Origin: Terriglobia bacterium
Lineage (GTDB): Bacteria; Acidobacteriota; Vicinamibacteria; Vicinamibacterales; CAVVIG01
Length of the DNA stretch: 64,000 nucleotides
Assembly: GCA_020073005.1 (NCBI GenBank)
Contig: JAIQFX010000027.1
Location: 120 to 64,119 of the forward strand
Direction of reading: 5' to 3'
This document shows positions 1-61,508 of the stretch, piece after piece. The number at the start of each line of letters is the position of its first letter. Position 1 is the stretch's first letter. Under the pieces are notes generated by a model, which worked only from the letters and a program-made list of their open reading frames with translations, did not search any database and had not been told where the DNA came from. The position numbers and the translations under genes were made by a program.

Positions 1-1
1 G

Positions 2-247
2 TCGGTCGCCGCAATGCTGGAAGAGGCTCGCGCGGCTGAGAGCGATCGCGATTTCATTTCAAAATGCAGCATCGGACTGAAAGAAGCACGTGAAGCCCAC
101 GTCAGGCTTCGCCTTCATGAAGCCTGTCGCATCGGGCCAGCCCCGGAAGCGGTGGCGCTTCGGGAGGAAGCCAACGCTCTGGTGTCAATCATCGGGACCA
201 TCGTCCGGAATAAGCGTGCGAACATGGCCCTAATTCTTCATTCCTAA
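2..247 (+). CDS. four-helix-bundle protein (TIGR02436 / 23S rRNA intervening-sequence protein family), 5'-truncated by window edge
   Basis: Frame is open from the window edge to TAA 245-247. 'DFISKCSIGLKEAREAHVRLRL' resembles the conserved F-I-x-K-L-x-I-A-x-K-E-x-x-E helix of the family. The ORF ends inside a TAATTCY array. Confidence 0.55.
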   Translation, partial: SVAAMLEEARAAESDRDFISKCSIGLKEAREAHVRLRLHEACRIGPAPEAVALREEANALVSIIGTIVRNKRANMALILHS

Positions 248-250
248 TTC
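231..250. repeat. TAATTCY heptamer array (single arm at end of four-helix-bundle gene)
   Basis: taattcttcattcctaattc; it contains the TAA stop of the upstream ORF. Confidence 0.7.
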
Positions 251-1156: not shown

Positions 1157-1242
1157 CTAATTAAGAATGAAGAATCATGAATTATGAAAGGGACGCCTGC
1201 GAGCGTTCGTCATTCTTAATTCCTAATTCTCCATTCTTAATT
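1157..1242. repeat. inverted pair of TAATTCY/GAATTAR heptamer arrays (long imperfect hairpin) filling an intercistronic gap
   Basis: Left arm is ctaattaagaatgaagaatcatgaattatgaa. Right arm is cattcttaattcctaattctccattcttaatt. It lies between the PGT stop (1253) and the GT2 start (1151). Confidence 0.8.
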
Positions 1243-2632: not shown

Positions 2633-4014
2633 AGGGCGGGTGGGGGAGCTGGGGCGGGTAAGGCAGGTGGGGAGACAGCCGCCTGCCACGCGTCCGCCGA
2701 GACGCGCGTGCCGGCCGCGATCACCATCCAGAACATGCCCATGATTTTGTACGAGACGAACGCGTCGACGAGCACGGCGCTGACCGACGTGGCCACCACG
2801 GCGAGCGCCGCTCCATACACGATAGCACGCGGCAGCGGCCCCGCACTGTGAGGAGTGCGGCGCGCGGCGCGGACGAGCATCCACAGCAGCGCCGCGAGAA
2901 GGACGATGAAGGTCACGAATCCGGCGACGCCCGTGTCCGCCAGCACGCGGACGTACCAGCCGTCGGGCGAGGCGGGCAGATCGTACTGGCGGACGTACGC
3001 GAGGTAGCCGCCGAGGCCGTCGCCGAGGAAGGGCCGCGCGAGCCAGTGATCGAACGCGAGCCGCCAGTTCTTCGCGCGCAGCGCCAGGCTCGGATCGGTC
3101 GCGATCGCCTGCCGGATGACGTCGGGATCGAGCGTCGTCGCGAGCGACACGACGCCGTGCACGAGCGTCAGCATCTTCTTCGACGTGATCACGTACGGCG
3201 CCGCGGCCGCGGCGACGCCCATCGTCAACAGCGTTCGCCACCGCGCGTGCCAGACGAGATCGATCGCGACGATCAGCACCAGCCCGAGCAGCGACGCGCG
3301 CGACTCGGAATTCGCCGTCACGATCGCGCCGGCCGCGAGCGCCAGCGTCGTCAACGGACCGCGGCTGCCGCCGGCGCTCCACAGCGCGTACATCAGGATC
3401 GTCGCGAGCATCATGTAGCCGCCGAAGTCGTACGAGGCCGAGAACGTCGGATAGAGCGTCGCCCACGGCGTGGGCGGTCCGGCGGCGGGCGCGTGCGTCC
3501 AGTGCTGCGCGAGCCAGATCGCGCAGATCAGCAGCAGTGCGGTGCGCGCGACCTCGACGAAGCGATTGAATTCGTCCGGCGCGAGCGCGCTATAGAAGAA
3601 GTAGTAGAGCAGGCCGTACTGGACGAGACGGCCCGCGTGAAACACGCCCGTCAGCGGCTCAGTCGACAGCGCGGCCACGCCGATCAACGTGCACGCGATC
3701 GCGACGCCCCAGTAGATCAATAGAAAGAATGTCGCGGGCGAGGGAGGCGCCGTGGCGTCCCCCGGATTCGTGGTGTCCGGCTTCAGCCGGATCCCGGGCC
3801 GGACCCTGAAGAACTTCCGCGCCCACCAGATCAGCACGAGCGCGAGCACGACATCGTCGACGCGGATCGGCGTCGTGTTGCCCGGCACGGCGGCGAGCGG
3901 CACCTTCGGCATCAGCGCGATGAACAGGACGAGAAACGCCCAGACGCGCGGCACGCGCCGGAGTTGGTAGGCCGAAACAACGACGCACGCGGCGATGATG
4001 ACGATGGGCGACAT
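2629..4014 (-). CDS. O-antigen ligase / Wzy-like polymerase family membrane protein
   Basis: About 10-12 hydrophobic helices in a polysaccharide locus. It carries an in-frame hairpin-repeat insertion ('RLKPDTTNPGDATAP'). Confidence 0.6.
   Translation of the reverse strand: MSPIVIIAACVVVSAYQLRRVPRVWAFLVLFIALMPKVPLAAVPGNTTPIRVDDVVLALVLIWWARKFFRVRPGIRLKPDTTNPGDATAPPSPATFFLLIYWGVAIACTLIGVAALSTEPLTGVFHAGRLVQYGLLYYFFYSALAPDEFNRFVEVARTALLLICAIWLAQHWTHAPAAGPPTPWATLYPTFSASYDFGGYMMLATILMYALWSAGGSRGPLTTLALAAGAIVTANSESRASLLGLVLIVAIDLVWHARWRTLLTMGVAAAAAPYVITSKKMLTLVHGVVSLATTLDPDVIRQAIATDPSLALRAKNWRLAFDHWLARPFLGDGLGGYLAYVRQYDLPASPDGWYVRVLADTGVAGFVTFIVLLAALLWMLVRAARRTPHSAGPLPRAIVYGAALAVVATSVSAVLVDAFVSYKIMGMFWMVIAAGTRVSADAWQAAVSPPALPAPAPPPAL
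3751..3805. repeat. CGTGG-GTCCGGCTTCAGCCGGAY hairpin unit inserted in-frame in the Wzy-like CDS
   Basis: cgtggcgtcccccggattcgtggtgtccggcttcagccggatcccgggccggacc. The same unit occurs at 29197, 30813-30873 and 56909. Confidence 0.75.
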
Positions 4015-4015
4015 G

Positions 4016-4118
4016 GAAATTATGAATTGGGAATTAGGAATTAAGAATGGAATCCCTGACTGTCTTCTCGCTAATTCTGAATTCTGAATTCTTAATTCTT
4101 AATTCCTAATTCCTAATT
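4016..4118. repeat. inverted pair of TAATTCY heptamer arrays
   Basis: Left arm is gaaattatgaattgggaattaggaattaagaatggaat. Right arm is ctaattctgaattctgaattcttaattcttaattcctaattcctaatt. It spans from the Wzy-like start (4014) into the last codons and TAG (4106-4108) of the Wzz-like gene. Confidence 0.8.
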
Positions 4119-9496: not shown

Positions 9497-9607
9497 AAAT
9501 TGCGGAACGCGGAATGCGGAGCGCGGAGGTCTGGCGACGGAACAGCGCGAGCAATCGAGACGTTCGACGAGTCTCAATCCGCATTCCGCAATCCTCAATC
9601 CGCAATG
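9497..9607. repeat. inverted GCGGAAT/GCGGAGY heptamer arrays with about a 42-nt spacer
   Basis: Left arm is aaattgcggaacgcggaatgcggagcgcggagg. Right arm is tctcaatccgcattccgcaatcctcaatccgcaatg. It starts 3 nt after the synthase stop. Confidence 0.8.
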
Positions 9608-9624: not shown

Positions 9625-10962
9625 ATGAGCGTGAAGGTCAAGTCATCGACCGCGAAAGGCCAGGAGCTCTACCGCCGCGCGAAGAAGCTGATCCCGGGCG
9701 GGACGCAGCTGCTGTCGAAGCGGCCGGAAATGTTCCTGCCCGATCAGTGGCCCTCGTACTACTCGAAGGCGCGCGGCGTCGAGGTCACCGACGTCGACGG
9801 CAACACGTACGTCGACATGTCGATGATGGCGATCGGCGCGTGCGTGCTCGGCTACGCCGATCCGGACGTCGACGCGGCGGCGAAGGCGGCAATCGACGCC
9901 GGGTCCGCCACGACCCTCAACGCGCCCGAGGAAGTCGAGCTCGCCGAGCTGTTGTGCGAGCTGCATCCGTGGGCGCAGATGGTCCGCTACGCGCGCTCGG
10001 GCGGCGAGGCGATGATGATGGCCGTCCGCATCGCGCGCGCACACACGCGCAAGGACAAGATCGCGTTCTCCGGCTACCACGGCTGGTGCGATTGGTACCT
10101 GGCGGCCAACCTCTCGGATGAACGCGCGCTCGACGGCCAGCTGATGCCCGGCCTCGATCCCGCCGGCGTGCCGCGCGGCCTGAAGGGCACGGCGCTGCCG
10201 TTCCACTACAACCGGCTCGATCAGCTGAAGGCGATCGTCGACGCCACGCGCGGCGAGCTCGGCGTCATTGTCATGGAGCCGCGGCGCGGCGACGCGCCGG
10301 CGCCGGGCTTCCTCGAAGCGGTGCGCGCGATCGCGACCGACATCGGTGCCGTGCTGGTCTTCGACGAAGTGACGACCGGCTTCCGCATGACCGACGGCGG
10401 CATCCACAAGCTCCTCGGCGTCAACCCGGACATCGCCGTCTTCGCGAAGGCGATGGCCAACGGCTATCCGATGGCCGCCGTCATCGGCACGTCGACCGTG
10501 ATGGAAGCCGCGCAATCCACGTTCATCAGCAGCACCAACTGGACCGAGCGCGTTGGCACGGTCGCGGCGATCGCGACGATCCGCAAGATCCGCCGCGAGC
10601 GCGTGACGGATCACCTGATCCGCATCGGCGAGCTGACGTTCGCCGGCTGGAAGGCCGCCGCCGCGAAGGCCGGCCTCGCGCTGCACACCGAAGGCCTGCC
10701 GAGCCTGACGCACTTCGGCTTCGAGCATCCGGACGAGCCCGCGCTGACGACGCTCTTCACGCAGGACATGCTGGAGCGCGGCTATCTCGCGTACAGCCAG
10801 TTCAAGCCGTCGTTCGCGCATCAGCCGTCGCACGTCGACGCGTACATGAAGGCCGTCGCATCGTCGTTCGCGATGATCGCGGACGCGATCAAGGCGGGCG
10901 ACTATGGATCGCGATTGAAAGGGCCGTCCGCAAGGCGCGGGTTTTATCGATTGACGTCGTAA
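9625..10962 (+). CDS. class III (glutamate-1-semialdehyde aminomutase-like) PLP aminotransferase
   Basis: 'SGGEAMMMAVRIARAHT', 'VFDEVTTGFR' and 'FAKAMANGYP'. ATG 9625 was chosen because upstream ORF codons are translated repeat array. Confidence 0.8.
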   Translation: MSVKVKSSTAKGQELYRRAKKLIPGGTQLLSKRPEMFLPDQWPSYYSKARGVEVTDVDGNTYVDMSMMAIGACVLGYADPDVDAAAKAAIDAGSATTLNAPEEVELAELLCELHPWAQMVRYARSGGEAMMMAVRIARAHTRKDKIAFSGYHGWCDWYLAANLSDERALDGQLMPGLDPAGVPRGLKGTALPFHYNRLDQLKAIVDATRGELGVIVMEPRRGDAPAPGFLEAVRAIATDIGAVLVFDEVTTGFRMTDGGIHKLLGVNPDIAVFAKAMANGYPMAAVIGTSTVMEAAQSTFISSTNWTERVGTVAAIATIRKIRRERVTDHLIRIGELTFAGWKAAAAKAGLALHTEGLPSLTHFGFEHPDEPALTTLFTQDMLERGYLAYSQFKPSFAHQPSHVDAYMKAVASSFAMIADAIKAGDYGSRLKGPSARRGFYRLTS

Positions 10963-11040
10963 TGAAGAATTAAGAATGAAGAATTACGAATTATGAATTC
11001 CGAACCATTCTTAATTCCCAATTCCTAATTCTTAATTTCA
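10961..11040. repeat. inverted pair of TAATTCY heptamer arrays
   Basis: aatgaagaattaagaatgaagaattacgaattatgaattc / attcttaattcccaattcctaattcttaatttcac. It includes the TAA stop 10960-10962. Confidence 0.8.
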
Positions 11041-11042
11041 CT

Positions 11043-11990
11043 GTGCATTACCGTCCCCTCGGCCGCACCGGCCTCGCCGTCTCCGCTCTCTCGCTCGGCA
11101 CGGTTTCCCTGGGCGTCGACTATGGCATCCAGGCGCCGGGCGAATTCGGCCGGCCAGACGAGGCGGAGGCGATCCGGCTGCTGCGCGCGGCGGTCGACCG
11201 CGGCATCACGCTCGTCGACACGGCGCCGACCTACGGCGAGAGCGAGCGCCTCGTCGGACGTGCGTTGGGCCGCGACGCGCGCATGCTGTTCGCGACCAAG
11301 GTCGGCTCCGCGCTGCACGAACGGCCCGGCGAGCTTCGCGGCCCCACGCTTCGCGCGGAGCTCCTCGCGTCGATCGACCGCAGCCGTCGCGCGTTCGGAC
11401 GCGACGTGATCGATATCCTTCAGTTCCACAACGCGACGCGCGAGCTGATCGACGCCGGCGAGGTGACCGACATTCTGCTGGACGTCAAACGCCGCGGCCT
11501 CGTCCGCGTGCTCGGCGCCTCGGTCCTGAGCGCCGCCGCGGCGATGGCCGCGATAGCATCGGGAGAGTACGAGCAACTGCAGGTCGCGTTCAGCGCGCTG
11601 GACCAGCGGATGGCCCGCGACGTGCTGCCCGCCGCGCAGGCGGCGGGCGTCGGCGTCGTCGTCCGCTCCGCCCTGCTCAAGGGCGCGCTCACGCCCAAGG
11701 CGCAGTGGCTGCCAGAGGCGCTCGCGCCGTTGCGCGAGGCCGCGATCCGCGCGCGCGACGCGCTCGCGGGCGGCGTCTGGGATCGGTTGCCGGATGCGGC
11801 ATTGCGCTTCTGCCTCTCGACGCCCGGCGTCGCAACCGTGTTGACGGGCGCGAGGACGATGACGGAGCTCGACGCGGCGCTCGAAGCAGAAGCGGCAGGG
11901 CCGCTTGATGCGCCGACGGCCGACGCTGCCGGGCGGCTTGCAGTGGCTGACGAAGCGCTTCTGGACCCGTGGCATTGGCCTGTGCCGTGA
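11043..11990 (+). CDS. aldo/keto reductase
   Basis: 'YRPLGRTGLAVSALSLGT' and 'DTAPTYGESE' AKR signatures. GTG start. Confidence 0.8.
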   Translation: MHYRPLGRTGLAVSALSLGTVSLGVDYGIQAPGEFGRPDEAEAIRLLRAAVDRGITLVDTAPTYGESERLVGRALGRDARMLFATKVGSALHERPGELRGPTLRAELLASIDRSRRAFGRDVIDILQFHNATRELIDAGEVTDILLDVKRRGLVRVLGASVLSAAAAMAAIASGEYEQLQVAFSALDQRMARDVLPAAQAAGVGVVVRSALLKGALTPKAQWLPEALAPLREAAIRARDALAGGVWDRLPDAALRFCLSTPGVATVLTGARTMTELDAALEAEAAGPLDAPTADAAGRLAVADEALLDPWHWPVP

Positions 11991-13018
11991 TGCGATCGAT
12001 CCTCATCCGTTGCGACGGCGGCGCCGACATCGGCATGGGCCACGCGGTCCGATCGCTGGCGCTTGCCGACGAGCTGCGCGACGCGCACGGCTGCGCGATC
12101 GCGTTTGCGATGCGCGAGCCCGCCGGCGCGGGCGCGGCCGCCGTGCGCGCGGCGGGGTACGCAATCGACGTGATCGAGGCCGACGATCGCCACGACTATC
12201 CCGACGTCCTCGCCGCCCTCACCGCGTCGCGCAAGGCTGACGTGCTGATCGTCGACGTCCGCGACGCGCTGTCGCGCGCGGCGCTCGACCGTCTTCGTCA
12301 GGCCGGCGTCCACATCGTCACGATCGACGACATCTCCGAACGGCGGCTCGCGTCGGACCTCGCGTTCTATCCGCCCGTTCCGCACGTCGCGGCGATCGAT
12401 TGGACCGGATTCACCGGTCGCCGGTATGCGGGCTGGGAGTGGGTGATTCTCAGAAGAGAGTTTGGGGCAGGTGGGGCTGGTGGGGAGAGCCCCGCGATCG
12501 ACGTGCTCGTGACGATGGGCGGGAGCGACGCGGCGGGGATGACGGCGTTCACGCTCCAGGCCCTCGAGCTGCTGCCGATGCCGCTCTCGGTTCTCGTCGT
12601 GGTGGGACCGGCGTTCACCCACGCGCTCGAGCTCATCGACGCGGCCGCGCGCTCACGGCACAGCGTTCGGATCGCACGGACGCCCGGGTCGATGGCGGCG
12701 CTGATGCGCGGGAGCCGGATGGCCGTCGCGGCGTTCGGCGTCAGCGCGTATGAGCTCGCGGCCTGCGGCGTGCCGGCCGTCCATCTCTGCCTGACGAGCG
12801 ACCACGAGCGCTCATCGTCTGCCTTCGTCGAGGCCGGCATTGCGATCACCGCAGGTGTATTCGGACACGTGCTGCCGGAGCAGATTGCCGACTCGGTGAC
12901 GCGGCTGATGGGGAATGCCGGCCGCCGCGGCGAGATGGCGGAGCGCGCGCGGCGCCTGGTCGACGGCCGCGGCGCTCGACGCGTGGCCGACGAGATCGTC
13001 AGCCGGTTACTGAGCTGA
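11990..13018 (+). CDS. pseG: UDP-2,4-diacetamido-2,4,6-trideoxy-beta-L-altropyranose hydrolase-like (GT-B, PseG family)
   Basis: 'IRCDGGADIGMGHAVRSLALA' and 'VLVTMGGSD'. TGATG overlap with the AKR stop. Confidence 0.7.
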   Translation: MRSILIRCDGGADIGMGHAVRSLALADELRDAHGCAIAFAMREPAGAGAAAVRAAGYAIDVIEADDRHDYPDVLAALTASRKADVLIVDVRDALSRAALDRLRQAGVHIVTIDDISERRLASDLAFYPPVPHVAAIDWTGFTGRRYAGWEWVILRREFGAGGAGGESPAIDVLVTMGGSDAAGMTAFTLQALELLPMPLSVLVVVGPAFTHALELIDAAARSRHSVRIARTPGSMAALMRGSRMAVAAFGVSAYELAACGVPAVHLCLTSDHERSSSAFVEAGIAITAGVFGHVLPEQIADSVTRLMGNAGRRGEMAERARRLVDGRGARRVADEIVSRLLS

Positions 13019-13125
13019 CGGACGGACGGACGGACGGACGGACGAAGGTAACCACGGAGGACACAGAGGACACAGAGGACACGGAGGAAGAGAATCCAGC
13101 CACAGAGACACCGAGACACAGAGAG
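13019..13125. repeat. (ACGG)n, GAGGACACA and CACAGAGA tandem arrays
   Basis: cggacggacggacggacggacg; then accacggaggacacagaggacacagaggacacggaggaag; then cagccacagagacaccgagacacagagag. It starts directly after the pseG TGA. Confidence 0.8.
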
Positions 13126-13174
13126 CGGCCGACACCGTGAAACTCCGTGTGCGACTGGCCCGCGAAGCGGGCCA

Positions 13175-13256
13175 CACTGCGGAAAAAGGCCGACGCAATC
13201 ACAAACGTTGATTCAATGCAGCGTCGTTTGTGTTGCGCCGGCCTTTTTTCGCAGTG
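13175..13256. terminator. bidirectional intrinsic terminator-like long hairpin between convergent genes
   Basis: cactgcggaaaaaggccgacgcaatcacaaacg pairs with cgtttgtgttgcgccggccttttttcgcagtg (2 mismatches and 1 bulge). The A-tract/T-tract geometry gives a U-run on both strands. Confidence 0.6.
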
Positions 13257-13294
13257 CGACGGCCGGCTCCGCCGGCCGCCGGTCGCACACGCTT

Positions 13295-13319
13295 CAACTC
13301 CTCCGTGTCCTCCGTGGTT
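13295..13319. repeat. inverted partner of the GAGGACACA array
   Basis: caactcctccgtgtcctccgtggtt is the reverse complement of aaccacggaggacacggaggagttg (compare 13050-13075). Confidence 0.75.
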
Positions 13320-13372
13320 TCATTTCTTCTGCGGTTTCCGCGAGTTCTGCGTTGATCGTCGTTCGTTGTGAA

Positions 13373-15244
13373 TCAACGAGTCTCGGCGACCAGCGCGGCG
13401 ACGCGGTCGGTCGCGTGGCCGTCCAGCTCGGACACGTACGCGCGCAGCTCGGCGCTGCGCGCAAGCGCCCCGCGATCCAGCCCGGCCGCGCCGGCGCGCC
13501 GCGCGGTGAGCTGTTGCCCGAGTTCCTCGATCGAGTACGCGATCGCGATCCCCGGCACGCGATCGAGCGGCAGCAGCTTCCGGCGGAAGACGGCATCGAA
13601 GACGATCGCCGGTGTGCCGAGCGCGATCGACTCGAGCACGGTCGTCGAGTACGCGGCGACGAGCACGTGCGACTTCTCGAGGATGTCGTACAGAATCGGC
13701 TCGCGGATCGTCGTCAACGTCAGCGGATCCCACCCCAGCGCCCGCGCGGCCTCCGCGTAGTACTCCGCTTCCTCGCCCGGATGCATCTTGTGAATGACGC
13801 GGACGTCGGTCTGCGTCCGGGCCCACGCGAGGACCGCGTCGATCATCAGCAGGTTCTCGTACTCGGACGCGCCCATCGAGTAGTCCGTCATGAAGCCGGA
13901 GCAGATCGTAACGGTGAATGTGGCTGGTGCCTGGTGACTGGTGGCTGGTGACTGACTCCCGACTCCCGACTCCCGACTCCCGACTCGCGCGGCGAGCGCG
14001 TCAAAGCGCGGGTTACCCGTTACAACAAAGCTCGCTGTCTGCGCGCCTTGCGCGCGATACCACGTCTCGGTCCAGTCCCCCCACGTGGCGAGCCGGTCCA
14101 CGTGCGCGACGGAATGCCCGTTCGGCTCGCCCGTGATGCCGTGCTGGATTCCCGTCGACGCCACGCCGAAGCGGCGCGCCGTGTCGATGAGCACGCGGTT
14201 GTACGCCGTCACGTCGCTCGACGTGAGCACTCGCCCGCCGGCGCACGCGTCGGTGAGCGACTGCAGGTGACGCAGCGCCGGGACCCACGCCGCGATGTGC
14301 AGCCACACCGTGCGGCCGACGAGCGGCCAGTACGGCACGCCGGCCACGGTGAACTGGCCGGCGTGCGCGCGATCGCCGCTCAACGAGAGCGCCTGCGCCA
14401 CGGCGTCGGCGAGCGCGCCCAGCCAGCGGATCGGATCGACGAGATCGGTGAACGCTTCCAGTGGGATGAGGTCGCGCGGTTGAAACAGCGCGCGCCCGGG
14501 CTGCGTCGCCCCCGCGATCACGATGGGACGCGCGGCGCCCTGAAGCCGCTCGACGACATCCGCGGTGAAGCGATCGCCGACGACGATCAGCGCGCGAGCG
14601 CCTGGCGACGGCATCGCACCGCGCGCGATCCGGCGCCACAGGCCCGTGAAGAACGTCAACCAGATGAAGCCCGGCTCGAGCACGAGCGCGCGAAATTCCG
14701 TGTTGACCCACTTCGTCGCGCGGCCGGCCCGAAGGCGCGCGAACGCCTGCGCCGCGCGCTGAAGGACGTCACCGCCGACGATCTCGGTCGTCAACCCGCG
14801 ACGGCTCGCCACGAGGCGCGCGGCGTCCACGAGCGGCCCGCCGCCGACGAGCACGAGGCGGCCCGGCGCGGATCGCGTCAGCTCGTCGTCGATCGCGGTG
14901 ACGTTGCGCACGGCGCGGCTGAACGACGGGATGAGCGTGTACTGCAGGTATGGGCCGAAGTTCGTGCCCATGGCTTCGGCGTGCTTGCCCGCGGCGCGCG
15001 TGACGCCGTCGAGCATCGCGCGATCGCGCTCGACGATGAGATCCGGCGTGAGGCCGTCGGTCGTCAGGCGCGCGTCGATTCCTTCGCGGCGCAGCCGCAT
15101 CGCGAGCAGCGCGTCGCCGGTCAGGACGGCGGCCGACGCGCCCCGCAGCCGCGCCGGCGCCAGCGCTTCCCGCAGCGCGCGTTCCGCGTGACGGTCCTCG
15201 ACGATCAGCAGCTGGTCCGTGATACGGCGAGCGTACCACGACAT
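13373..15244 (-). CDS. hypothetical two-domain protein, C-terminal half GT-B/Rossmann-like (candidate glycosyl- or nonulosonate-transferase)
   Basis: 623-aa ORF with normal composition in a sugar locus. The C-terminal 'VLVAAYSTTVLESIALGTPAIVF' resembles the GT-B donor-binding helix. No family was recognised with certainty. Confidence 0.45.
   Translation of the reverse strand: MSWYARRITDQLLIVEDRHAERALREALAPARLRGASAAVLTGDALLAMRLRREGIDARLTTDGLTPDLIVERDRAMLDGVTRAAGKHAEAMGTNFGPYLQYTLIPSFSRAVRNVTAIDDELTRSAPGRLVLVGGGPLVDAARLVASRRGLTTEIVGGDVLQRAAQAFARLRAGRATKWVNTEFRALVLEPGFIWLTFFTGLWRRIARGAMPSPGARALIVVGDRFTADVVERLQGAARPIVIAGATQPGRALFQPRDLIPLEAFTDLVDPIRWLGALADAVAQALSLSGDRAHAGQFTVAGVPYWPLVGRTVWLHIAAWVPALRHLQSLTDACAGGRVLTSSDVTAYNRVLIDTARRFGVASTGIQHGITGEPNGHSVAHVDRLATWGDWTETWYRAQGAQTASFVVTGNPRFDALAARVGSRESGVGSQSPATSHQAPATFTVTICSGFMTDYSMGASEYENLLMIDAVLAWARTQTDVRVIHKMHPGEEAEYYAEAARALGWDPLTLTTIREPILYDILEKSHVLVAAYSTTVLESIALGTPAIVFDAVFRRKLLPLDRVPGIAIAYSIEELGQQLTARRAGAAGLDRGALARSAELRAYVSELDGHATDRVAALVAETR
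13920..13986. repeat. GGTGRCT and GACTCCC heptamer arrays, in-frame inside the 623-aa CDS
   Basis: gtggctggtgcctggtgactggtggctggtgactgactcccgactcccgactcccgactcccgactc. On the minus strand it is translated as 'SRESGVGSQSPATSHQAPAT'. Confidence 0.8.
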
Positions 15245-25200: not shown

Positions 25201-25204
25201 TGCC

Positions 25205-25298
25205 CTGCAGCTTTCAGCTGTCAGCACTCGGCTTTCAGCGCTCACTTCTTCCTTCTTCCTTCTTAATTCCTAATTCTTAATTCTTAATTCTCAATTCC
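25205..25298. repeat. concatenated arrays: CAGCTTTCAGCTG-type units, CTTCCTT heptamers and TAATTCY heptamers
   Basis: ctgcagctttcagctgtcagcactcggctttcagcgctcac; then ttcttccttcttccttctt; then aattcctaattcttaattcttaattctcaattcc. It abuts the thiS stop codon (TAG, 25298-25300). Confidence 0.8.
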
Positions 25299-25629: not shown

Positions 25630-28600
25630 ATGCCGTCGCGTCCGACCGCTGATACCACGCCCGAGACCGCACTGGGCGTGCCGGGTTACACGTTCGCCGA
25701 TCTGCACGATCCGCCGAGGCTGGCGTCGCTCTACGAGCGCTTCTGCGAGGAAGTGGCCGCGGCCGATCCGGTTGTCTGGCGCGAGTGGGACGCGTATCGC
25801 CAGGCGCCGGATGCGCCGCGCGCGCCGCTCGCGGTGTCGAATCTGCTCACGAGCATGGCGCCGCACGTCAGCCGCTTCCTCACGCGCCTGTTTCAGGTGG
25901 AGCCGGACGCGCGCGCGATCGGCGACGCCACCCGCGCGCAGGACGATCTGTTCCGCTTCAAGGTGGACTTCGTGCGCCGCCGCGCGCTGCCGCTCGTCAA
26001 ACTAGACAAAGCAGGCGGCGCGCCCCTCACGGCAACGCCCGAAGACGATGCGATCGTCGACCAGCTGATCGCGCGATCGGCCGGCGTCGACCGCGAGCTC
26101 GCCGTCGCACGAGCAGGATGCGCGCTCCTCGATCAAGAGCGCGCCGAAGCCACCAGCCACCAGCCACCAGCCACCAGTCGCCAGGTCGATGCGCTCAAGC
26201 GCTGGTGCGCGTCGCGTCTGCACGACCGCGCGTACCGCGACTGGGTGATCTTCCGTTTTCCCGAGACGCTCGACTACTGGAAGCTCGTCGAGGTCCGGCG
26301 TCCCGAGCCGCGGCGGCCCGAGTCGATGCTCGGGCCTGATTGGCGGCGCCGCCGCCGCGATGGTTTCCTGCTCACGGACGCGCGCATGAATGCGCGCGAG
26401 ACGATGAGCGAGATCCATTACTGCGTGCTGTGCCACGAGCGCGACAAGGACTCGTGCTCGAAAGGCCTCTTCGAAAAAGATCTCACAGTTGTCGTCAACC
26501 CGCTCGGCATTCCGCTCGACGGCTGTCCCCTCGACGAGAAGATCTCCGAGATGCACACCTTGCGCAAGGCCGGCGACGCCGTCGGCGCGCTCGCGCTCGT
26601 CGTCGTCGACAACCCGATGTGTCCCGGCACCGGCCATCGCATCTGCAACGACTGCATGAAGTCGTGCATCTACCAGAAGCAGGAGCCGGTCAACATTCCG
26701 CAGATCGAAACGGGCGTGCTGACCGACGTCCTGCGGCTGCCGTGGGGCGTGGAGATCTTCGGTCTGCTCACGCGGTGGAATCCGCTCAACGTCCGCCGGC
26801 CGTACGCGCTGCCGTACAACGGCAAGAACGTCCTCGTCGTCGGCCTCGGCCCCGCGGGTTACACGCTCGCGCACTATCTGGTGAACGAAGGCTTCGGCGT
26901 CGTCGGCGTCGATGGACTCAAGATCGAGCCGCTGCCGCGCGACATCGTCGGCACCGACACCGTCGCGCCGCGGCCGATTCGCGACTGGGACGAAATCTAT
27001 CGCCGCCTCGACGAGCGCGTGCTCGAGGGATTCGGCGGCGTGTCCGAGTACGGGATCACCGTGCGATGGGACAAGAACTTCCTGACGCTGCTGCACCTGA
27101 CGCTCGCGCGGCGGCGCGGCCTGCGGATGTACGGCGGCGTCCGCTTCGGCGGCACGCTGCCCATCGAGGACGCGTGGACGTACGGCTTCGATCACGTGGC
27201 GATTGCCGCGGGCGCCGGACGGCCGACCGTCATCGACATGAAGAACAACCTGATCCGCGGGATCAGGAAGGCGAGCGATTTCCTGATGGCGCTGCAGCTG
27301 ACGGGCGCCTTCAAGCGCGACGCGCTTCCCAATCTGCAGGCGCGCCTGCCGGCGGTCGTCATCGGCGGCGGCCTCACGGCGATCGACACGGCGACCGAGC
27401 TGATGGCGTACTACCCGCTGCAGGCGGAGAAGACGCTGCGGCGGTACGAGACGCTCGTCGCCGAGATTGGCGAAGCGCGCGTGCGCGGCGCGTACGACGC
27501 CGAAGAGCTCGAGATTCTCGACGAGTCGCTCGCACACGGACGCGAGGTGCGCGCCGAGCGCGCGCGCGCCGCGACCGCCGGCGAGTCACCCGACTTCGTG
27601 CCGCTCGTGCGATCGTGGGGCGGCGTCACGATCGCGTACCGCAAGCGCATGGTCGATTCGCCGGCGTACCGGCTGAATCACGAGGAAGTGATCAAGGCGC
27701 TCGAAGAAGGCATCGTGTTCGCGGAGCTGCTGAATCCCGTTGAAGCAGTTTCGGACGCGCGGGGCGCGCTGAAAGAAGTGATCTTCAGGCGGGAAGGGCG
27801 GGAGAGGCAGGAAGGGCAGGAAGGGAACGTGACGCTCCCTGCGCGGACGCTGCTCGTGGCGGCGGGGACGACGCCCAACATCACGTGCGAGAAGGAAGCG
27901 CCGGGCCACTTCCAGCTCGACGCGAAGAAGAAATTCTTCCAGCCGCACGGCGTCACCGCGAACGGCGACGGCCGTTTCCATCTGACGCCCGATCCGAACG
28001 GCTTCTTCACGTCGTACGACGCCGACGGCCGGTTCGTCACGTACTACGGCGACAACCATCCGCGCTACGCCGGAAACGTCGTCAAGGCGATGGCCTCGGC
28101 CAAGCACGGCTTCCCGCAGGTGACGCGGCTGTTCGCGCGCGACCTCGCGTCGCTCGACGCGGGGAAGCAGGCCGATCGCGATCGCGCCTGGACGGCGCTC
28201 GTGCAGCGGCTCGACACCGATCTGCTCGCGCGCGTCGAGGACGTCGTGCGGCTGACGCCGACGATCGTCGAAGTCATCGTGAAGGCGCCGGCGGCCGCGC
28301 GCCATTTCCATCCGGGTCAGTTCTACCGGCTGCAGAACTTCGAATCGGTCGCGCGCCGCGTCGGCCCGACGCCGCTGCTGATGGAAGGCATCGCGCTCAC
28401 CGGCGCGTGGGTGGACAAGGAGCGCGGGCTGCTGTCGCTCATCGCGCTCGAGCTCGGCGTGTCGAGCCGGCTCGTCGCGTACCTGCAGAAGGGCGAGCCG
28501 GTCGTCGTCATGGGACCGACGGGCGCGCCGACGGACATCCCCGAGTGCCAGAACGTGCTGCTGCTCGGCGGCGGCCTCGGCAACGCCGTGCTCTTCTCGA

Positions 28601-29196: not shown

Positions 29197-29216
29197 GGTC
29201 CGGCTTCAGCCGGACC
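29197..29216. terminator. GGTCCGGCTTCAGCCGGACC hairpin exactly filling the gap between two convergent stop codons
   Basis: 8-bp GC stem with a 4-nt loop between TAG 29194-29196 and TAA (minus strand) 29217-29219. There is no U-tract. Confidence 0.4.
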
Positions 29217-29492: not shown

Positions 29493-31655
<2,163 letters not shown>

Positions 31656-32628: not shown

Positions 32629-32690
32629 TTCGTGGCCTTCTGCCTTCTTCCTTCTTCCTTCTTGACTTCGCTCTCATTCTCCATCATCTT
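32629..32690. repeat. CTTCCTT / GAAGGAA heptamer array in a divergent intergenic region
   Basis: ttcgtggccttctgccttcttccttcttccttcttgacttcgc. On the minus strand it gives GAAGGAA repeats (SD-like) directly upstream of the glk ATG. Confidence 0.75.
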
Positions 32691-38712: not shown

Positions 38713-39636
38713 ATGCGGATCTTCCTGACAGGCGCCACCGGTTACATCGGTTCGGCCGTGCTCGACGCGCTCGTGCGCGGCGGCCACGATGTGACGGCCC
38801 TCGTGCGCGACAACGAGAAGGCGCGGCGCGTCGCGAAACGCGGCGCGCATCCGGTGATCGGCAATCTGGCCGAGCCCGACTCGTTTCGCGGCAGCGCCGA
38901 CGGGCAGGACGGCTACGTGCTCACCGCGTTCGACTCGACGTCGGGCCGCGGACCGGCGATCGATCGCGCGGTGCTCGAGACGATTCTCGCGGCGGCGAAG
39001 CGCCCGCGCACGGCGGGCTCCGCGGCGCCGGCGCAGCGCTTCATTATCTATACGTCCGGCGTCTGGGTGCTCGGCCGGACTCCGGATCCGGCGGCGGAAG
39101 ACGCGTCGCTGAATCCGATCGACCTCGTCTCGTGGCGTCCGGATCACGAGCAGTTCGTGGTGGACTCCGCCAACGCCGCGCTGCGGACGGTCGTCGTGCG
39201 GCCGGGCGTCGTGTACGGCAGCAGCAACGGCATCGTCGGCGACCTGTTCAAGTCAGCCAGCAACGGCCTCGTCCGGGTCGTCGGCGACGGCAACAACCAC
39301 TGGCCGCTCGTGTACGACCGCGACCTCGCCGATCTCTATGCGAAGCTCGCCGCCAGCGCCGATGCCGGCGGCGTGTTCCACGCCAATGACGAAGGCGACG
39401 AGCGCGTCAACGACATCGTCGACGCCATCAAGCCGTACCTGCCCGTGCGCCCCGACGTGCGCCACGTCCCCATCGACGAGGCGCGCAGCAAGATGGGCGC
39501 GTACGCCGACGCCCTCGCGCTGGATCAGCTGGTCCGCAGCCCGCGCGCCCGCGCGCTGGGCTGGACGCCGACGCTGAAGTCAGTCGCCGGGAACGCCGCT
39601 CGGCTGCTGGAAGAATGGCGCGCCGAGCGGAACTGA
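38713..39636 (+). CDS. NAD-dependent epimerase/dehydratase (atypical SDR) family protein
   Basis: 'MRIFLTGATGYIGS' Rossmann motif. Confidence 0.7.
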   Translation: MRIFLTGATGYIGSAVLDALVRGGHDVTALVRDNEKARRVAKRGAHPVIGNLAEPDSFRGSADGQDGYVLTAFDSTSGRGPAIDRAVLETILAAAKRPRTAGSAAPAQRFIIYTSGVWVLGRTPDPAAEDASLNPIDLVSWRPDHEQFVVDSANAALRTVVVRPGVVYGSSNGIVGDLFKSASNGLVRVVGDGNNHWPLVYDRDLADLYAKLAASADAGGVFHANDEGDERVNDIVDAIKPYLPVRPDVRHVPIDEARSKMGAYADALALDQLVRSPRARALGWTPTLKSVAGNAARLLEEWRAERN

Positions 39637-39675
39637 AAACCGAAAAGTGAAAACTGAAAAGTGAAGGAGGAAGTG
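39634..39675. repeat. GAAAAST heptamer array
   Basis: tgaaaaccgaaaagtgaaaactgaaaagtgaaggaggaagtg. It begins with TGA 39634-39636 and ends as the SD of the next ORF. Confidence 0.75.
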
Positions 39676-42694: not shown

Positions 42695-43840
42695 ATGGAT
42701 TCCTGCATCGCGCTTCTCCGCGATCTCGTCGCGATCAACTCGGTCAATCCCACGCTCGTGCCGGGCGCGCCGGGCGAGCGCGCGGTCGCCGAGTTCATCG
42801 CGGCCGACATGCGCACGCACGGTCTCGACGTTTCGATCGAGCCCGTCGTGCCGGATCGACCGAACGTCGTCGGCGTCCTCGAGGGGCGCGCGCCGGGGCG
42901 GACGCTGATGTTCTGCGGCCACACCGACACCGTCGGCGTCGCGGGCATGACCGATCCGTTCGCGCCGGTCGAACGTGACGGCCGTCTGTACGCGCGCGGC
43001 GCGCAGGACATGAAGGGCGGCGTCGCCGCGATGATGAGCGCGGCCGCGGAGATCGCGGCGCGCGGCGGCCTCGCGAAAGGCCGATTGATCGTCGCGGCCG
43101 TTGTCGATGAAGAGCACTCGAGCATCGGCGCGGACGCGCTCGTCACGAAGTGGCGCGCCGACGCGGCAATCGTGACGGAGCCGACCGACCTCGCGATCGC
43201 GGTCGGACACAAGGGTTTCGCGTGGGTGCGCGTCGATGTCGAAGGCAAGGCCGCGCACGGCAGTCGTCCGGCGGAAGGGCAGGACGCGATTCTGCGGCTC
43301 GGCCGCGTCCTCGCGCGGCTCGAGGCGCTGGACGCGACGCTGCAGGCGCAGCCGCCGCACGCGCTGATGGGCACCGGATCGCTGCACGCGTCGCTCATCG
43401 AAGGCGGACACGAGCTGAGCAGCTATCCCGATCATGCGACGCTGCAGATGGAGCGGCGGACGCTGCCCGGCGAGCCCGAATCGAAAGCGCTGGCGGAAGT
43501 GCAGCAGATTCTCGACGCGCTCGCGCGCGAGGATCCGACGTTCCGCGGCACGGCGACGGCGAGGTTCAGCCGGCCGGCGTACGAAGTCCCCGCGAATCAT
43601 GAGCTGCCGCGCGCGCTGACAGCCGCGCTGGCGCGCGCCGGAGGCCAGCCGCGCATCGCGGGCGCGAGTTTCTGGACCGACGCCGCAGTCCTCGGCCACG
43701 CCGGGATTCCCTCGATCCTCTTTGGACCGGGTGGGGCTGGACTTCACTCGACGGTCGAATACGTCAACGTGCGGGATGTGTTGACGTGTCGAGACGCGTT
43801 GATCGAGTTGGCAAAGAACTACTGCGGGTCAATTGGGTAG
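42695..43840 (+). CDS. M20 family metallopeptidase (ArgE/DapE-type deacylase)
   Basis: 'FCGHTDTV', 'ARGAQDMKGG' and 'VVDEEHSS'. Confidence 0.8.
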   Translation: MDSCIALLRDLVAINSVNPTLVPGAPGERAVAEFIAADMRTHGLDVSIEPVVPDRPNVVGVLEGRAPGRTLMFCGHTDTVGVAGMTDPFAPVERDGRLYARGAQDMKGGVAAMMSAAAEIAARGGLAKGRLIVAAVVDEEHSSIGADALVTKWRADAAIVTEPTDLAIAVGHKGFAWVRVDVEGKAAHGSRPAEGQDAILRLGRVLARLEALDATLQAQPPHALMGTGSLHASLIEGGHELSSYPDHATLQMERRTLPGEPESKALAEVQQILDALAREDPTFRGTATARFSRPAYEVPANHELPRALTAALARAGGQPRIAGASFWTDAAVLGHAGIPSILFGPGGAGLHSTVEYVNVRDVLTCRDALIELAKNYCGSIG

Positions 43841-44229
43841 TTGAGTAATTGGGTAGGTGGGTAATTGCCGTGACGTTGCCAGTATCGGATTGAACGCACT
43901 CGGATTCAGCGCGTTCGTTCGGGGACACCGTCGTTGTCGTGGAGAGACACCAGTGATGTGGCTTCCGAGTCGATCACAATAGGCGCTGATATGGATTGCC
44001 CTCGTCGGCGGGTGCGCGCTTGCTGCCGTCTCAATCAGCTACAGCGATCAAACGGCAACTGCTGAAGGCGGCAACATCAGTGTTGTGACCGAGGAGGCCG
44101 ACGAGTGTCAGTACTGGCTGAACCTCGTTGCGGATGCAAAACTGGCGACGAGTCCTGAGCGGAGCGGCGATGATTGCGGCGGGAAGCGATTACCCAATTA
44201 CCCAACCTTACTCAATTCCCCGATTCACC
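43831..44229. mobile_element. candidate palindromic element: inverted GGGTAATT arrays bracketing a decayed four-helix-bundle gene
   Basis: Arms are 43831-43867 (aattgggtagttgagtaattgggtaggtgggtaattg) and 44188-44229 (gattacccaattacccaaccttactcaattccccgattcacc). The interior looks lower in GC and has only broken ORFs. Confidence 0.45.
43983..44186 (+). pseudogene. degenerate four-helix-bundle (TIGR02436-like) gene fragment
   Basis: The frame reads '...AAVSISYSDQTATAEGGN...EEADECQYWLNLVADAKL', reminiscent of the 'AAxSIxxNIAEG' and 'KEAxETxYWLxLL' motifs. There is no plausible full-length ORF. Confidence 0.35.
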
Positions 44230-47356: not shown

Positions 47357-48229
47357 TTGTCTGCGTTCTTGAACGCCGAACTGGAGTCGATCACCGCGGT
47401 CGTGCTGGACGCGCTCGACGTGCTCGCCCGGGCGCGCGCCGGCGGCGCGGATGCGGTTCCCGATCCCGCCGCGCTGATCTTCCTGCTCCGGCGATATCTG
47501 GCGAGCGATCGCGACGATCTGCGCGACGCGCTGGGCGAGGCGCTGGCGCCGGCCCTCGCGCGCGCCGCGGCCGAAACGCGCAGCCTCGAGTGCGCCGCCT
47601 GGCTCACGCTCTTCTCGGAAGCCAGCGCGATCTCCGACGATGACCGTCTTCCTTCAGCCGCCGCCGCGCTGATCGCCGACCTGCGGCGCGCCTGGCCGTC
47701 GACGGACGTCGTCGAACAGGGCATGGCGTCGGTCGACGCGTGCCTGCGCGCCGCGAACCTCGTCGATCCGCAGGACCTCGTGCCCGCCGCCATCGACGAG
47801 CTCGAGCGCGTCGTCGGCCATGCGTATCAGCCGGGCGACGGCATCGCCCACACGATTCATTCGCACGTGCACGCGCGCGGGAGCCTCGGCGATCACGTGC
47901 GGTCGGCGTCGGCGCTCCTCACGGCCTTCGAGATCAGCGGTCGCCTGCCCTATTCGATGCTGGCCGAGGAGTTGATGCAGACCGCTCGTCGAGATCTGCA
48001 GGGCGCGACGGACTTCATCGCGCGCTGCGAAGGCTGCCGGGTGCTGAGCCGCCTCGCCGCGCTGCACGCGGACGAGGCGTACCGCGGCGCGGCCGTCATC
48101 GCGCCGCATGTCGATTACCGGGCGGATGCCGAACGCGTAATCACGGCGCTCTCATCGGATCCGCTCGCGCGCGGATCCGGCGCCGGGGAGTACGGGCTGG
48201 CGCTGCTCGCGGCGCTGGACGCGCGATGA
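47357..48229 (+). CDS. hypothetical protein
   Basis: About 290-aa alpha-helical-looking ORF with normal composition. The start is TTG 47357 or 47369. No family was recognised. Confidence 0.45.
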   Translation: MSAFLNAELESITAVVLDALDVLARARAGGADAVPDPAALIFLLRRYLASDRDDLRDALGEALAPALARAAAETRSLECAAWLTLFSEASAISDDDRLPSAAAALIADLRRAWPSTDVVEQGMASVDACLRAANLVDPQDLVPAAIDELERVVGHAYQPGDGIAHTIHSHVHARGSLGDHVRSASALLTAFEISGRLPYSMLAEELMQTARRDLQGATDFIARCEGCRVLSRLAALHADEAYRGAAVIAPHVDYRADAERVITALSSDPLARGSGAGEYGLALLAALDAR

Positions 48230-48277
48230 GATTTCAGATTTGAGAATTCAGAATTCAGAATACAATTCCCTTCTCCC
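48227..48277. repeat. AGAWTTC heptamer array
   Basis: tgagatttcagatttgagaattcagaattcagaatacaattcccttctccc. It begins with TGA 48227-48229 and ends at the tkt ATG. Confidence 0.75.
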
Positions 48278-56867: not shown

Positions 56868-56871
56868 TTCT

Positions 56872-56889
56872 GTCCGCCTGAAGGCGGAC
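56872..56889. terminator. GTCCGCCTGAAGGCGGAC hairpin after the stop of the + gene
   Basis: 7-bp stem with a 4-nt loop, 5 nt after TGA 56865-56867. There is no U-tract. Confidence 0.35.
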
Positions 56890-56908
56890 CCCACGACAGT
56901 GATTGGAT

Positions 56909-56934
56909 CCGTGGCGTCCGGCTTCAGCCGGACC
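56909..56934. repeat. CCGTGGC-GTCCGGCTTCAGCCGGACC unit abutting the stop of the minus-strand gene
   Basis: ccgtggcgtccggcttcagccggacc, immediately followed by TAA (minus strand) 56935-56937. Confidence 0.75.
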
Positions 56935-60938: not shown

Positions 60939-61403
60939 ATGCAGATTATCGCGAAATGCCCGGCGTGCGACGCCGGGTTGCCCGTCTCCGCCCGTGAAGC
61001 GCCGTCCGCGATCAAGTGCGGCGGCTGCGGCCGCGACATCCCGCTGACGTTCTCCGAGGATCTGAAGGCCGACCGCGCGATCGATCGCTGTCCCGTCTGC
61101 GAGGGAACCGACTTCTATATCCGCAAGGATTTCGATCCGAAGATCGGCCTCACCGTCGTCGTCATCGGCGCGATCATCAGCGGCATCTTCTACTGGTTCG
61201 GCAAGGACCTCGTCGCCTACAGCATTCTCGCCGCCGCCGCGCTGATCGATCTCGTCGTCTACGGCCGGCTGAAGGATCTCACGGTCTGCTATCGCTGCCA
61301 CAGCGAATTCCGCGGCGCGTACGAACGCAAGGCGCCCGCATTCGATCTGCATACCGCGGATGTTCTTGAACTGGAGTATGAGAGGCGGATAGGACGTCGG
61401 TGA
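60939..61403 (+). CDS. hypothetical zinc-ribbon membrane protein
   Basis: 'CPACDAG...CGGCG', 'CPVCEG' and 'CYRCHSEF', with two TM helices. Confidence 0.5.
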   Translation: MQIIAKCPACDAGLPVSAREAPSAIKCGGCGRDIPLTFSEDLKADRAIDRCPVCEGTDFYIRKDFDPKIGLTVVVIGAIISGIFYWFGKDLVAYSILAAAALIDLVVYGRLKDLTVCYRCHSEFRGAYERKAPAFDLHTADVLELEYERRIGRR

Positions 61404-61508
61404 ATTGGGTGAGTGAGTAGTTGGGTAATTGAGTAATCGCGGCGGCATTTCGCCGCGGGCGACGCAGCCATTACCCAATTACCCAACTTCCCACTTACCC
61501 AATTCACC
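61400..61508. repeat. cargo-less inverted GGGTAATT arrays: about 39-nt imperfect hairpin spanning the gap between convergent stop codons
   Basis: Left arm is gtgaattgggtgagtgagtagttgggtaattgagtaat. The right arm's reverse complement is ggtgaattgggtaagtgggaagttgggtaattgggtaat. The arms touch TGA 61401-61403 and TGA (minus strand) 61509-61511. Confidence 0.85.

Follow-up and report, generated by a model that had tools for sequence, protein, structure and literature searches.

The stretch of DNA considered here, called the window in the following, is a 64-kb contig with 68% GC. Its nearest genome relatives are Vicinamibacterales of the phylum Acidobacteriota, in agreement with the acidobacterial origin assumed in the initial annotation, an earlier reading of the sequence alone. 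The window contains a polysaccharide-synthesis cluster in which three junctions between co-directional genes are occupied by inverted pairs of the tandem heptamers TAATTCY and GAATTAR, and its left edge holds the 3' part of a gene for a small four-helix-bundle (FHB) protein, described as Avd-like or "S23p" (Table 1). Reports of tandem heptamers in bacterial genomes go back more than 30 years, under the names of short tandemly repeated repetitive (STRR) sequences or long simple sequence repeats (LSSR), with no accepted origin or role. The FHB protein belongs to PF05635/TIGR02436, a very common family of small proteins whose function is unknown.

Inverted heptamer arrays at operon junctions

Tandem Repeats Finder (TRF) detected 15 period-7 arrays with a score of at least 40 in the window in comparison to 0.1 in 30 dinucleotide shuffles (about 150-fold), and 23 in comparison to 6.2 with a score of at least 30. 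TAATTCY/GAATTAR arrays appear as TRF rows at 229, 4018, 4072, 10961, 11007 and 25260. The pairs at 1157-1242, 4016-4118 and 10961-11040 that had been pointed out initially were thus recovered, together with arrays at 229-250 and 25245-25297. Six TAATTCY-type arrays or pairs are present if the window is taken together with the locus L121, and every one of them lies in a gap between called genes. An Rfam scan of the window gave no matches, neither to rRNA nor to any other RNA family.

According to the gene calls, each of the pairs takes up the entire space between two co-directional genes in the cluster, as the initial annotation had stated. The three gaps are Bac_transf-GT2 (1152-1252), Wzz-like-Wzy (4015-4105) and aminotransferase-aldo-keto reductase (10963-11042). 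The arm at 4072-4118 also codes for the end of the Wzz-like gene, with the final codons VIRN* including the stop. Folding of the pairs into hairpins, likewise proposed initially, was borne out: on the mRNA strand, hairpins 1, 2 and 3 reach -36.5 (z -6.2), -30.0 (z -5.8) and -19.3 (z -5.4) kcal/mol, and for none of the three did any of 200 shuffles fold as well. Single-arm and non-inverted arrays fold with z between -0.6 and -1.1 only. The stems of the folded pairs comprise 26-45 bp, with z ranging from -5.4 to -6.2 for the TAATTCY pairs and down to -10.9 if an 8-mer hairpin is included. The base of the stem lies 5 nt past the upstream stop codon and 3 nt ahead of the GTG start in hairpin 1; in all three hairpins, it is found 4-5 nt past the stop (or includes the stop) and 3-4 nt before the start.

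The pair at 1157-1242 is base-for-base identical in six independent assemblies of a Vicinamibacterales population (three from ENA and three from Logan), and one protein of the window is found unchanged in three metagenome assemblies of ENA and in three Logan runs. Between L121 and L122, representing strains of about 99.8% identity, the arm at 4072-4118 differs by exactly two units (14 nt), which is the sole internal indel in about 6.6 kb of aligned sequence. Given the identity across assemblies and the two-unit strain difference, the arrays are real DNA that changes by slippage. An assembly artefact, named in the initial annotation as a possible refutation, is ruled out by the same two findings.

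The gaps between orthologous genes differ strongly among relatives. For Bac_transf-GT2, eight relatives with flanking proteins of 78-84% identity have gaps of -1 to 47 nt (at most 19 nt in seven of the eight), often with an overlapping ATGA, and the hairpin (gap of 101-104 nt) is limited to the window and its relative of 90% identity. The comparison of orthologous gaps suggested initially therefore revealed that the hairpin is absent from most relatives. The Wzz-like-Wzy junction has a gap of 8 nt in a 92%-identical relative. Judged from these orthologous sequences, the comparison shows the hairpins to be lineage-specific insertions into formerly tight or overlapping gene junctions. Other hairpin elements occupy both junctions elsewhere: a further relative has a 9-mer hairpin pair with the unit TCTCTGCGG at the Bac_transf-GT2 gap (L333 275-413), and another one an unrelated GC-rich palindrome, GGCAGGCCTGAAGGCCTGC, at the Wzz-like-Wzy junction (L278 2599-2690). 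The two operon junctions are thus recurrent insertion sites.

Table 1 Positions of genes, arrays and hairpins in the 64-kb window, in order of the elements discussed in the text
Feature	Position	Strand	Remarks
FHB gene (Avd-like, "S23p"), 3' part, codons 51-131	1-244	+	PF05635/TIGR02436
Pyrimidine-rich arm of the FHB-carrying element	229-250		Partner arm outside the window, L121 11407-11440
Hairpin 1, purine-rich arm, GAATNAR units	1157-1189		Between Bac_transf and GT2, both on the minus strand
Hairpin 1, spacer/loop, 21 nt, GC-rich	1190-1210		Holds a small hairpin of its own
Hairpin 1, pyrimidine-rich arm, YTAATTC units	1211-1242		
Hairpin 2, arm of GAATTRR units	4016-4053		Ends 3 nt from the Wzy start codon (4014)
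Hairpin 2, arm of seven TAATTCY units	4072-4118		Five or seven units depending on the strain
Hairpin 3, purine-rich arm	10961-10999		Aminotransferase TAA stop precedes its first unit
Hairpin 3, pyrimidine-rich arm	11007-11040		Ends 4 nt short of the aldo-keto reductase GTG
Inverted 8-mer arrays, TTGGGTAR (43833-43867) and ATTACCCA (44189-44225)	43833-44225	+	Enclose a degraded FHB pseudogene, 43983-44160
Cargo-less hairpin of the TTGGGTAR/ATTACCCA 8-mer family	61400-61508		-69.5 kcal/mol, z -10.9
GCGGAAY ... RTTCCGC hairpin	9499-9606		Between NeuB and the aminotransferase gene; -49.8 kcal/mol, z -3.9
Inverted 9-mer arrays, CACAGAGGA (13053-13124) and TCCTCCGTG (13299-13322)	13053-13322		Flank a 175-nt core with its own terminator-like hairpin
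Unpaired composite 7-nt array, GAATTAR, then GAAGGAA, then GCTGAAA-like units	25201-25297	-	Fills the thiS-thiG gap
GTCCGGCTTCAGCCGGAC palindrome, six copies	3774-3793, 29197-29216, 30813-30832, 30854-30873, 56871-56890, 56915-56934		

Four-helix-bundle genes enclosed by inverted arrays

The gene at the left edge of the window, which was not mentioned in the initial annotation any more than the link between FHB genes and arrays or the additional unit families, matches TIGR02436 with an E-value of 7.5e-14 (51.9 bits, cut-off 24) and PDB entry 2rld with an E-value of 5e-17; PF05635 is precomputed for all 120 of the homologues listed. Its last codons, LILHS*, are derived from the array at 229-250, and many FHB homologues terminate in IPNS*, which corresponds to ATTCCTAATTCC followed by TAA. 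The contig continues past the left end of the window, and this adjoining part (L121) has the partner array at 11407-11440, on the opposite side of the FHB gene; 229-250 is therefore one half of an inverted pair with FHB cargo and not a single arm, as 231-250 had been interpreted before. A second such arrangement is formed by the 8-mer family: the segment enclosed by its arrays contains the second- and third-best matches to the FHB profile in the whole window, collinear and in two frames. Thus, the TAATTCY family occurs in the window once with FHB and three times empty, and the 8-mer family once around a degraded FHB gene and once empty.

This association extends to other phyla. We compared 70 FHB loci, one genome per species, from Acidobacteriota, Cyanobacteria, Bacteroidota, Planctomycetota, Verrucomicrobiota, Patescibacteria, Clostridia and Desulfuromonadales, with the flanks defined as 300 nt upstream and 150 nt downstream of the gene. 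The density of period-7 arrays is 3.67 per kb in the flanks in comparison to 0.22 per kb in the rest (17-fold), and no other period is comparably enriched in the flanks. Arrays are present on both sides in 43 loci; upstream and downstream units are reverse complements of each other in 41 of these and match directly in one. At least 16 complementary positions between the two flanks were found in 65 of the 70 loci. The unit varies by lineage while the period stays at 7: GAATTAG-like units occur in many, AAGTCAA in Nostoc, GATATGC in Lewinella and AAGTGCG in Hymenobacteraceae. Additional FHB open reading frames (ORFs) in loci that had been fetched for other reasons showed the inverted-array build without exception (7/7). 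Of 51 pairs at FHB loci, 41 have the purine-rich arm on the 5' side, and this arm also comes first in 12 of 14 short-gap pairs found in 1.4 Mb of loci not chosen for repeats; this purine-first polarity reads identically on both strands.

How full and empty elements are related is seen at the junction between the genes for Ku and a CDP-alcohol phosphatidyltransferase, which we compared in 26 syntenic Vicinamibacterales species. Ten species have no insertion (gap of -4 to 24 nt), five carry a full FHB element of about 583-646 nt (the gap of one further locus was mis-measured), six have FHB-less arrays of 7-8-nt units of various sequence in gaps of 43-170 nt, and five fall outside these classes. 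One of the FHB-less junctions, L358, lacks about 400 nt between the parts that it shares with the full element of its closest relative; it retains both arms, the CGTACG motif beside the 5' arm and the last ~20 FHB codons (VAAKKAAEKAERAASKRPLPNS-stop). L358 is direct evidence that internal deletion can turn a full element into an FHB-less hairpin. The arms show modest covariation among orthologues: at an orthologous site, 92% of the positions are paired, and compensated pairs number 6 in comparison to 3.0 +/- 1.2 in shuffles.

The heptamers themselves are not peculiar to this genome: more than 120 loci from many phyla contain exact (TAATTCY)3, the GC content being at least 0.60 in 14 of the loci, and hairpins of the form GAATTAG-spacer-CTAATTC exist in other high-GC genomes too. 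Adjacency to FHB was considered as a general property of TAATTCY arrays and rejected; 120 (TAATTCY)3 loci contained five FHB ORFs, three of which directly adjoin the array.

Acidobacterial FHB genes (L121 11300-11445; L207-L222) share a predicted sigma-54-type promoter, TGGCAC-N5-aTGCT, located 13-16 nt before the ATG, and two CGTACG palindromes spaced 8-10 nt apart beside the 5' arm. This promoter placement would lead to a near-leaderless, regulated FHB transcript, and the paired palindromes could be a candidate site for an enhancer-binding protein. Most FHB homologues from metagenome assemblies reside on contigs under 2 kb, suggesting that the flanking arrays or a multi-copy FHB gene break short-read assemblies, and the hairpins may likewise contribute to such breaks.

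Origin and possible action of the hairpins

The intergenic heptamer hairpins share the build of the FHB-carrying intervening sequences (IVS) of 23S rRNA, which ties together heptamer arrays, rRNA IVS and the FHB/Avd-like family. We propose, with moderate confidence, that the TAATTCY/GAATTAR pairs belong, as forms without cargo, to a widespread, IVS-like class of hairpin insertions that fold out of the transcript and are probably substrates of RNase III. In this proposal, an element consists of two arms made of inverted tandem arrays with a unit of 7 nt, sometimes 8-9 nt, and with the purine-rich arm as the 5' arm, and the complete form encloses a small FHB gene as in the 23S rRNA IVS. The arms gain and lose units by slippage, as shown by the two strains, and internal deletion removes the cargo and leaves an "empty" hairpin, as shown by L358. 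On a polycistronic transcript, we infer that the element folds to a stem of 26-45 bp with its base 3-5 nt from stop and start. Due to this position of the stem base, the insertion would fold out and keep stop and start close to each other, which would explain why it is tolerated at tightly coupled junctions, much as rRNA helices tolerate an IVS. The analogy to IVS further suggests that RNase III probably cuts the stem and would split the operon transcript at the junction. The most plausible consequence of the hairpins is mRNA processing.

The initial annotation could not attribute the arrays to a described element, which holds only in part: their nearest described counterpart is the 23S rRNA IVS stem with its S23p/FHB gene, heptamers and RNase III cleavage as known from Coxiella (PMC4990558). 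The Coxiella IVS carries an S23p/FHB ORF and, upstream of it, three to four tandem GACAGAT heptamers whose copy number varies between strains, and RNase III cleaves its terminal stem of 28 bp in vitro (PMC4990558). Like the full elements described here, the IVS of Coxiella, Leptospira and others have complementary ends that pair into a long stem with a PF05635 ORF inside, and in both cases the ORF decays while the stem persists. The IVS are located in a 23S rRNA helix, whereas the elements found here are located in junctions of protein-coding genes, mostly have no ORF, have longer arrays as arms and, in the acidobacterial FHB copies, have a predicted sigma-54-type promoter of their own. Cleavage by RNase III is known for the Coxiella stem, while the present elements are known from their sequence.

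The likeness to the STRR of heterocystous cyanobacteria that was noted initially is substantial: in both cases tandem 7-nt units are intergenic and dispersed, vary in copy number and form several families per genome, and in Nostoc FHB genes are flanked by the heptamers AAGTCAA/TTTTGAC. The units of STRR1-3 are CCCCAGT, TTGGTCA and CAACAGT. Under the strict definition of STRR the present arrays would not be included, with a host from the Vicinamibacterales and units such as TAATTCY, GCGGAAY, GGTGRCT and others; the general STRR/LSSR definition, at least three head-to-tail 7-nt units that are non-coding, dispersed and variable by slippage, describes them well. To our knowledge, neither the inverted-pair hairpin form nor the link to FHB is part of the description of STRR. 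Hairpin-like repeats inside the tandem heptamers of Nostoc were reportedly described by Elhai et al. in 2008; this work on small dispersed repeats was not covered by our literature comparison, in which a link between PF05635 and repeats was found only for the Coxiella IVS. A Caldilineaceae locus (L177 2817-2922) has an inverted pair GGGGACT/CCCAGTC, a rotation of the STRR1 unit CCCCAGT.

The LSSR of Mrazek (2007), as summarised in PMC4679880, have units of 5-11 nt with heptanucleotides being the commonest, are phylogenetically sporadic and change in length by slippage. The arrays described here resemble them in the heptanucleotide units, the sporadic distribution and the slippage; LSSR are a statistical class without architecture, in contrast to the paired inverted arrays, fixed polarity and associated gene found here. 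Direct TAACTGA repeats of marine Beggiatoaceae, Cyanobacteria and Bacteroidetes were proposed to tune downstream translation (MacGregor 2015, PMC4679880). They occur in the same set of phyla, the unpaired arrays of the window (at thiG, glk, tkt and a hydrolase gene) resemble them in placement, and the window unit AACTGAA (39631-39665) is one base off TAACTGA. However, 169 of 170 sets in the genome studied are direct and not inverted, with no hairpin or FHB link reported (PMC4679880).

Several observations weigh against the proposed IVS-like class. The descent of the three TAATTCY hairpins from a full FHB element is something we infer: their spacers (7-21 nt) contain no recognisable FHB remnant and showed, when compared by eye, no similarity to each other or to the interiors of FHB elements. 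Cognate arms in the window are no better complementary than arms from different loci; therefore, the complementarity belongs to the unit family and not to the individual locus. Of the arm complementarity claimed initially, the better folding of the pairs in comparison to 200 shuffles stands, but not a fit particular to cognate arms. G-U and A-C mismatches are about equally frequent in the stems (84 and 88 at FHB loci, 3 and 7 in the window), thus giving no sign of selection on a sense-strand RNA helix, and AU-rich stems with mismatches may be poor substrates of RNase III. Loci of 936 kb in total that were not selected for repeats contained 107 heptamer arrays and only two FHB ORFs. In L286, a relative without the hairpin, the Wzz-like gene ends in GTAATCAGGAATTGA; this resembles two units, from which an array could have started to grow in place. 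Finally, no transposase, REP-associated tyrosine transposase (RAYT; REP, repetitive extragenic palindrome), integrase or reverse transcriptase was found among the ~55 proteins of the window and L121. Due to the missing wobble bias and the equal pairing of cognate and non-cognate arms, the elements may be largely selfish or neutral DNA.

Some of these points would also fit ordinary LSSR/STRR repeats that grow in place by replication slippage, with heptamers suiting the geometry of the polymerase, with inverted pairs made by template switching, and with a neutral character and no relation to FHB. We regard this explanation as doubtful, although the two-unit strain difference in one arm, the change of unit sequence between loci and between species at one junction, the absence of the hairpins from orthologous gaps, the possible seed in L286, the lack of a wobble bias and the lack of an FHB gene at most arrays are all compatible with it. 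It leaves unexplained that one unit family occupies six or more sites within 64 kb with interchangeable arms, that the purine-first polarity is constant, that FHB genes are enclosed by inverted arrays across phyla (41 of 43 loci), that both arms appear together where most relatives have a gap of 0-20 nt, and that L358 obtained its FHB-less hairpin from a full element. An unlikely explanation, in our opinion, is a cis-regulatory platform on mRNA or DNA in which each heptamer binds one protomer of a cold-shock protein, ribosomal protein S1 or FHB and thereby tunes downstream translation. Avd binds nucleic acid. FHB is homologous to Avd, the accessory protein of diversity-generating retroelements (PMC10053308), four unpaired arrays are located directly upstream of start codons in the placement reported by MacGregor 2015 (PMC4679880), at least three of them being purine-rich on the mRNA, and several units contain GGA or AGGA and are Shine-Dalgarno-like. 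A sequence-specific FHB site is however difficult to reconcile with units that vary widely while FHB proteins are 40-60% identical, and in the paired form the arm next to the start codon is the pyrimidine-rich one and not the purine-rich one, while the stem hides both.

Mobilization by a classical transposase encoded elsewhere in the genome (RAYT, IS200/IS605 or other) would make the hairpins non-autonomous transposons similar to REPINs (REP doublets forming hairpins) or miniature inverted-repeat transposable elements. The resemblance lies in extragenic inverted doublets that form hairpins, are dispersed and are absent from relatives, as described for REPINs (PMC3116915), and hairpins and REPINs are also alike in being lineage-specific and in their presumed status as non-autonomous elements partnered with a single-copy gene. 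We nevertheless consider it highly improbable: the arms are tandem arrays of variable length and unit order without a conserved REP core of 20-40 nt, the spacers are unrelated to each other, the protein set named above includes none of the enzymes required, and no ORF other than that of FHB, a four-helix-bundle protein without known catalytic activity, accompanies the hairpins consistently. The window even has a REP-like GC-rich palindrome family that is distinct from the heptamer hairpins. Hardly any credence can be given to intrinsic transcription terminators or attenuators within or between operons. Stable hairpins do lie between convergent genes at several places (13053-13322, 43833-44225 and 61400-61508), but the 3' arms of the TAATTCY hairpins are not followed by a U-tract, all three hairpins are inside a polysaccharide operon whose genes overlap or nearly overlap in most relatives, and their stems are far longer and more AU-rich than those of typical terminators.

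Returning to the IVS-like class, which we prefer, a more far-reaching version of it can be offered only tentatively. We speculate that an ancient class of hairpins spanning many phyla has the FHB gene as its autonomous core, that STRR, LSSR heptamers, TAACTGA-type arrays and the acidobacterial hairpins are largely non-autonomous or decayed progeny of this gene, and that the FHB protein acts in trans on the stems to propagate or maintain them. If the link between FHB and arrays holds genome-wide, two puzzles become one, with a testable question on the action of FHB and on RNase III sites. The hairpins mark tightly coupled genes that were pulled 80-130 nt apart, which should affect the expression of the operon.

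Other arrays and repeats of the window

At least five further families with units of 7-9 nt occur in the window, and additional array units are GGTGRCT, GACTCCC, TCCGCAC, AACTGAA, CAACGAC and GAAGGAA. The initial annotation had stated that the arrays always form palindromic pairs, which does not apply to four arrays at 25201-25297, 32636-32663, 39631-39665 and 48229-48261. These unpaired arrays lie in co-directional gaps directly 5' of the starts of thiG, glk, a dienelactone hydrolase gene and tkt. The one at 25201-25297 is purine-rich on the mRNA strand, as are clearly also those of glk and the dienelactone hydrolase gene, and less so that of tkt.

The core enclosed by the 9-mer arrays (13125-13298, 175 nt) contains a long perfect hairpin, GGCCGACGCAATCACAAACG ... 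CGTTTGTGTTGCGCCGGCC, with A5 and T6 runs on its sides, and looks like a bidirectional terminator between convergent genes. A perfect (GACG)7 tetranucleotide array (13017-13044) starts at the stop codon of a gene ending at 13018. Heptamer arrays that keep the reading frame are present inside ORFs at 13913-13986, 26148-26177 and 31331-31362, with the GGTGRCT family at all three positions; at 13913-13986, GACTCCC units (13954-13986) come after the GGTGRCT units. In a DUF6716-like glycosyltransferase, for example, such an array forms an insert of ~24 residues behind the VVTGNPRFD motif, and in a prolyl oligopeptidase it forms a stretch within the N-terminal propeller. The REP-like palindrome GTCCGGCTTCAGCCGGAC occurs at six sites in comparison to 0.01 expected and is unrelated to the heptamer hairpins; some of its copies lie at the ends of convergent genes.

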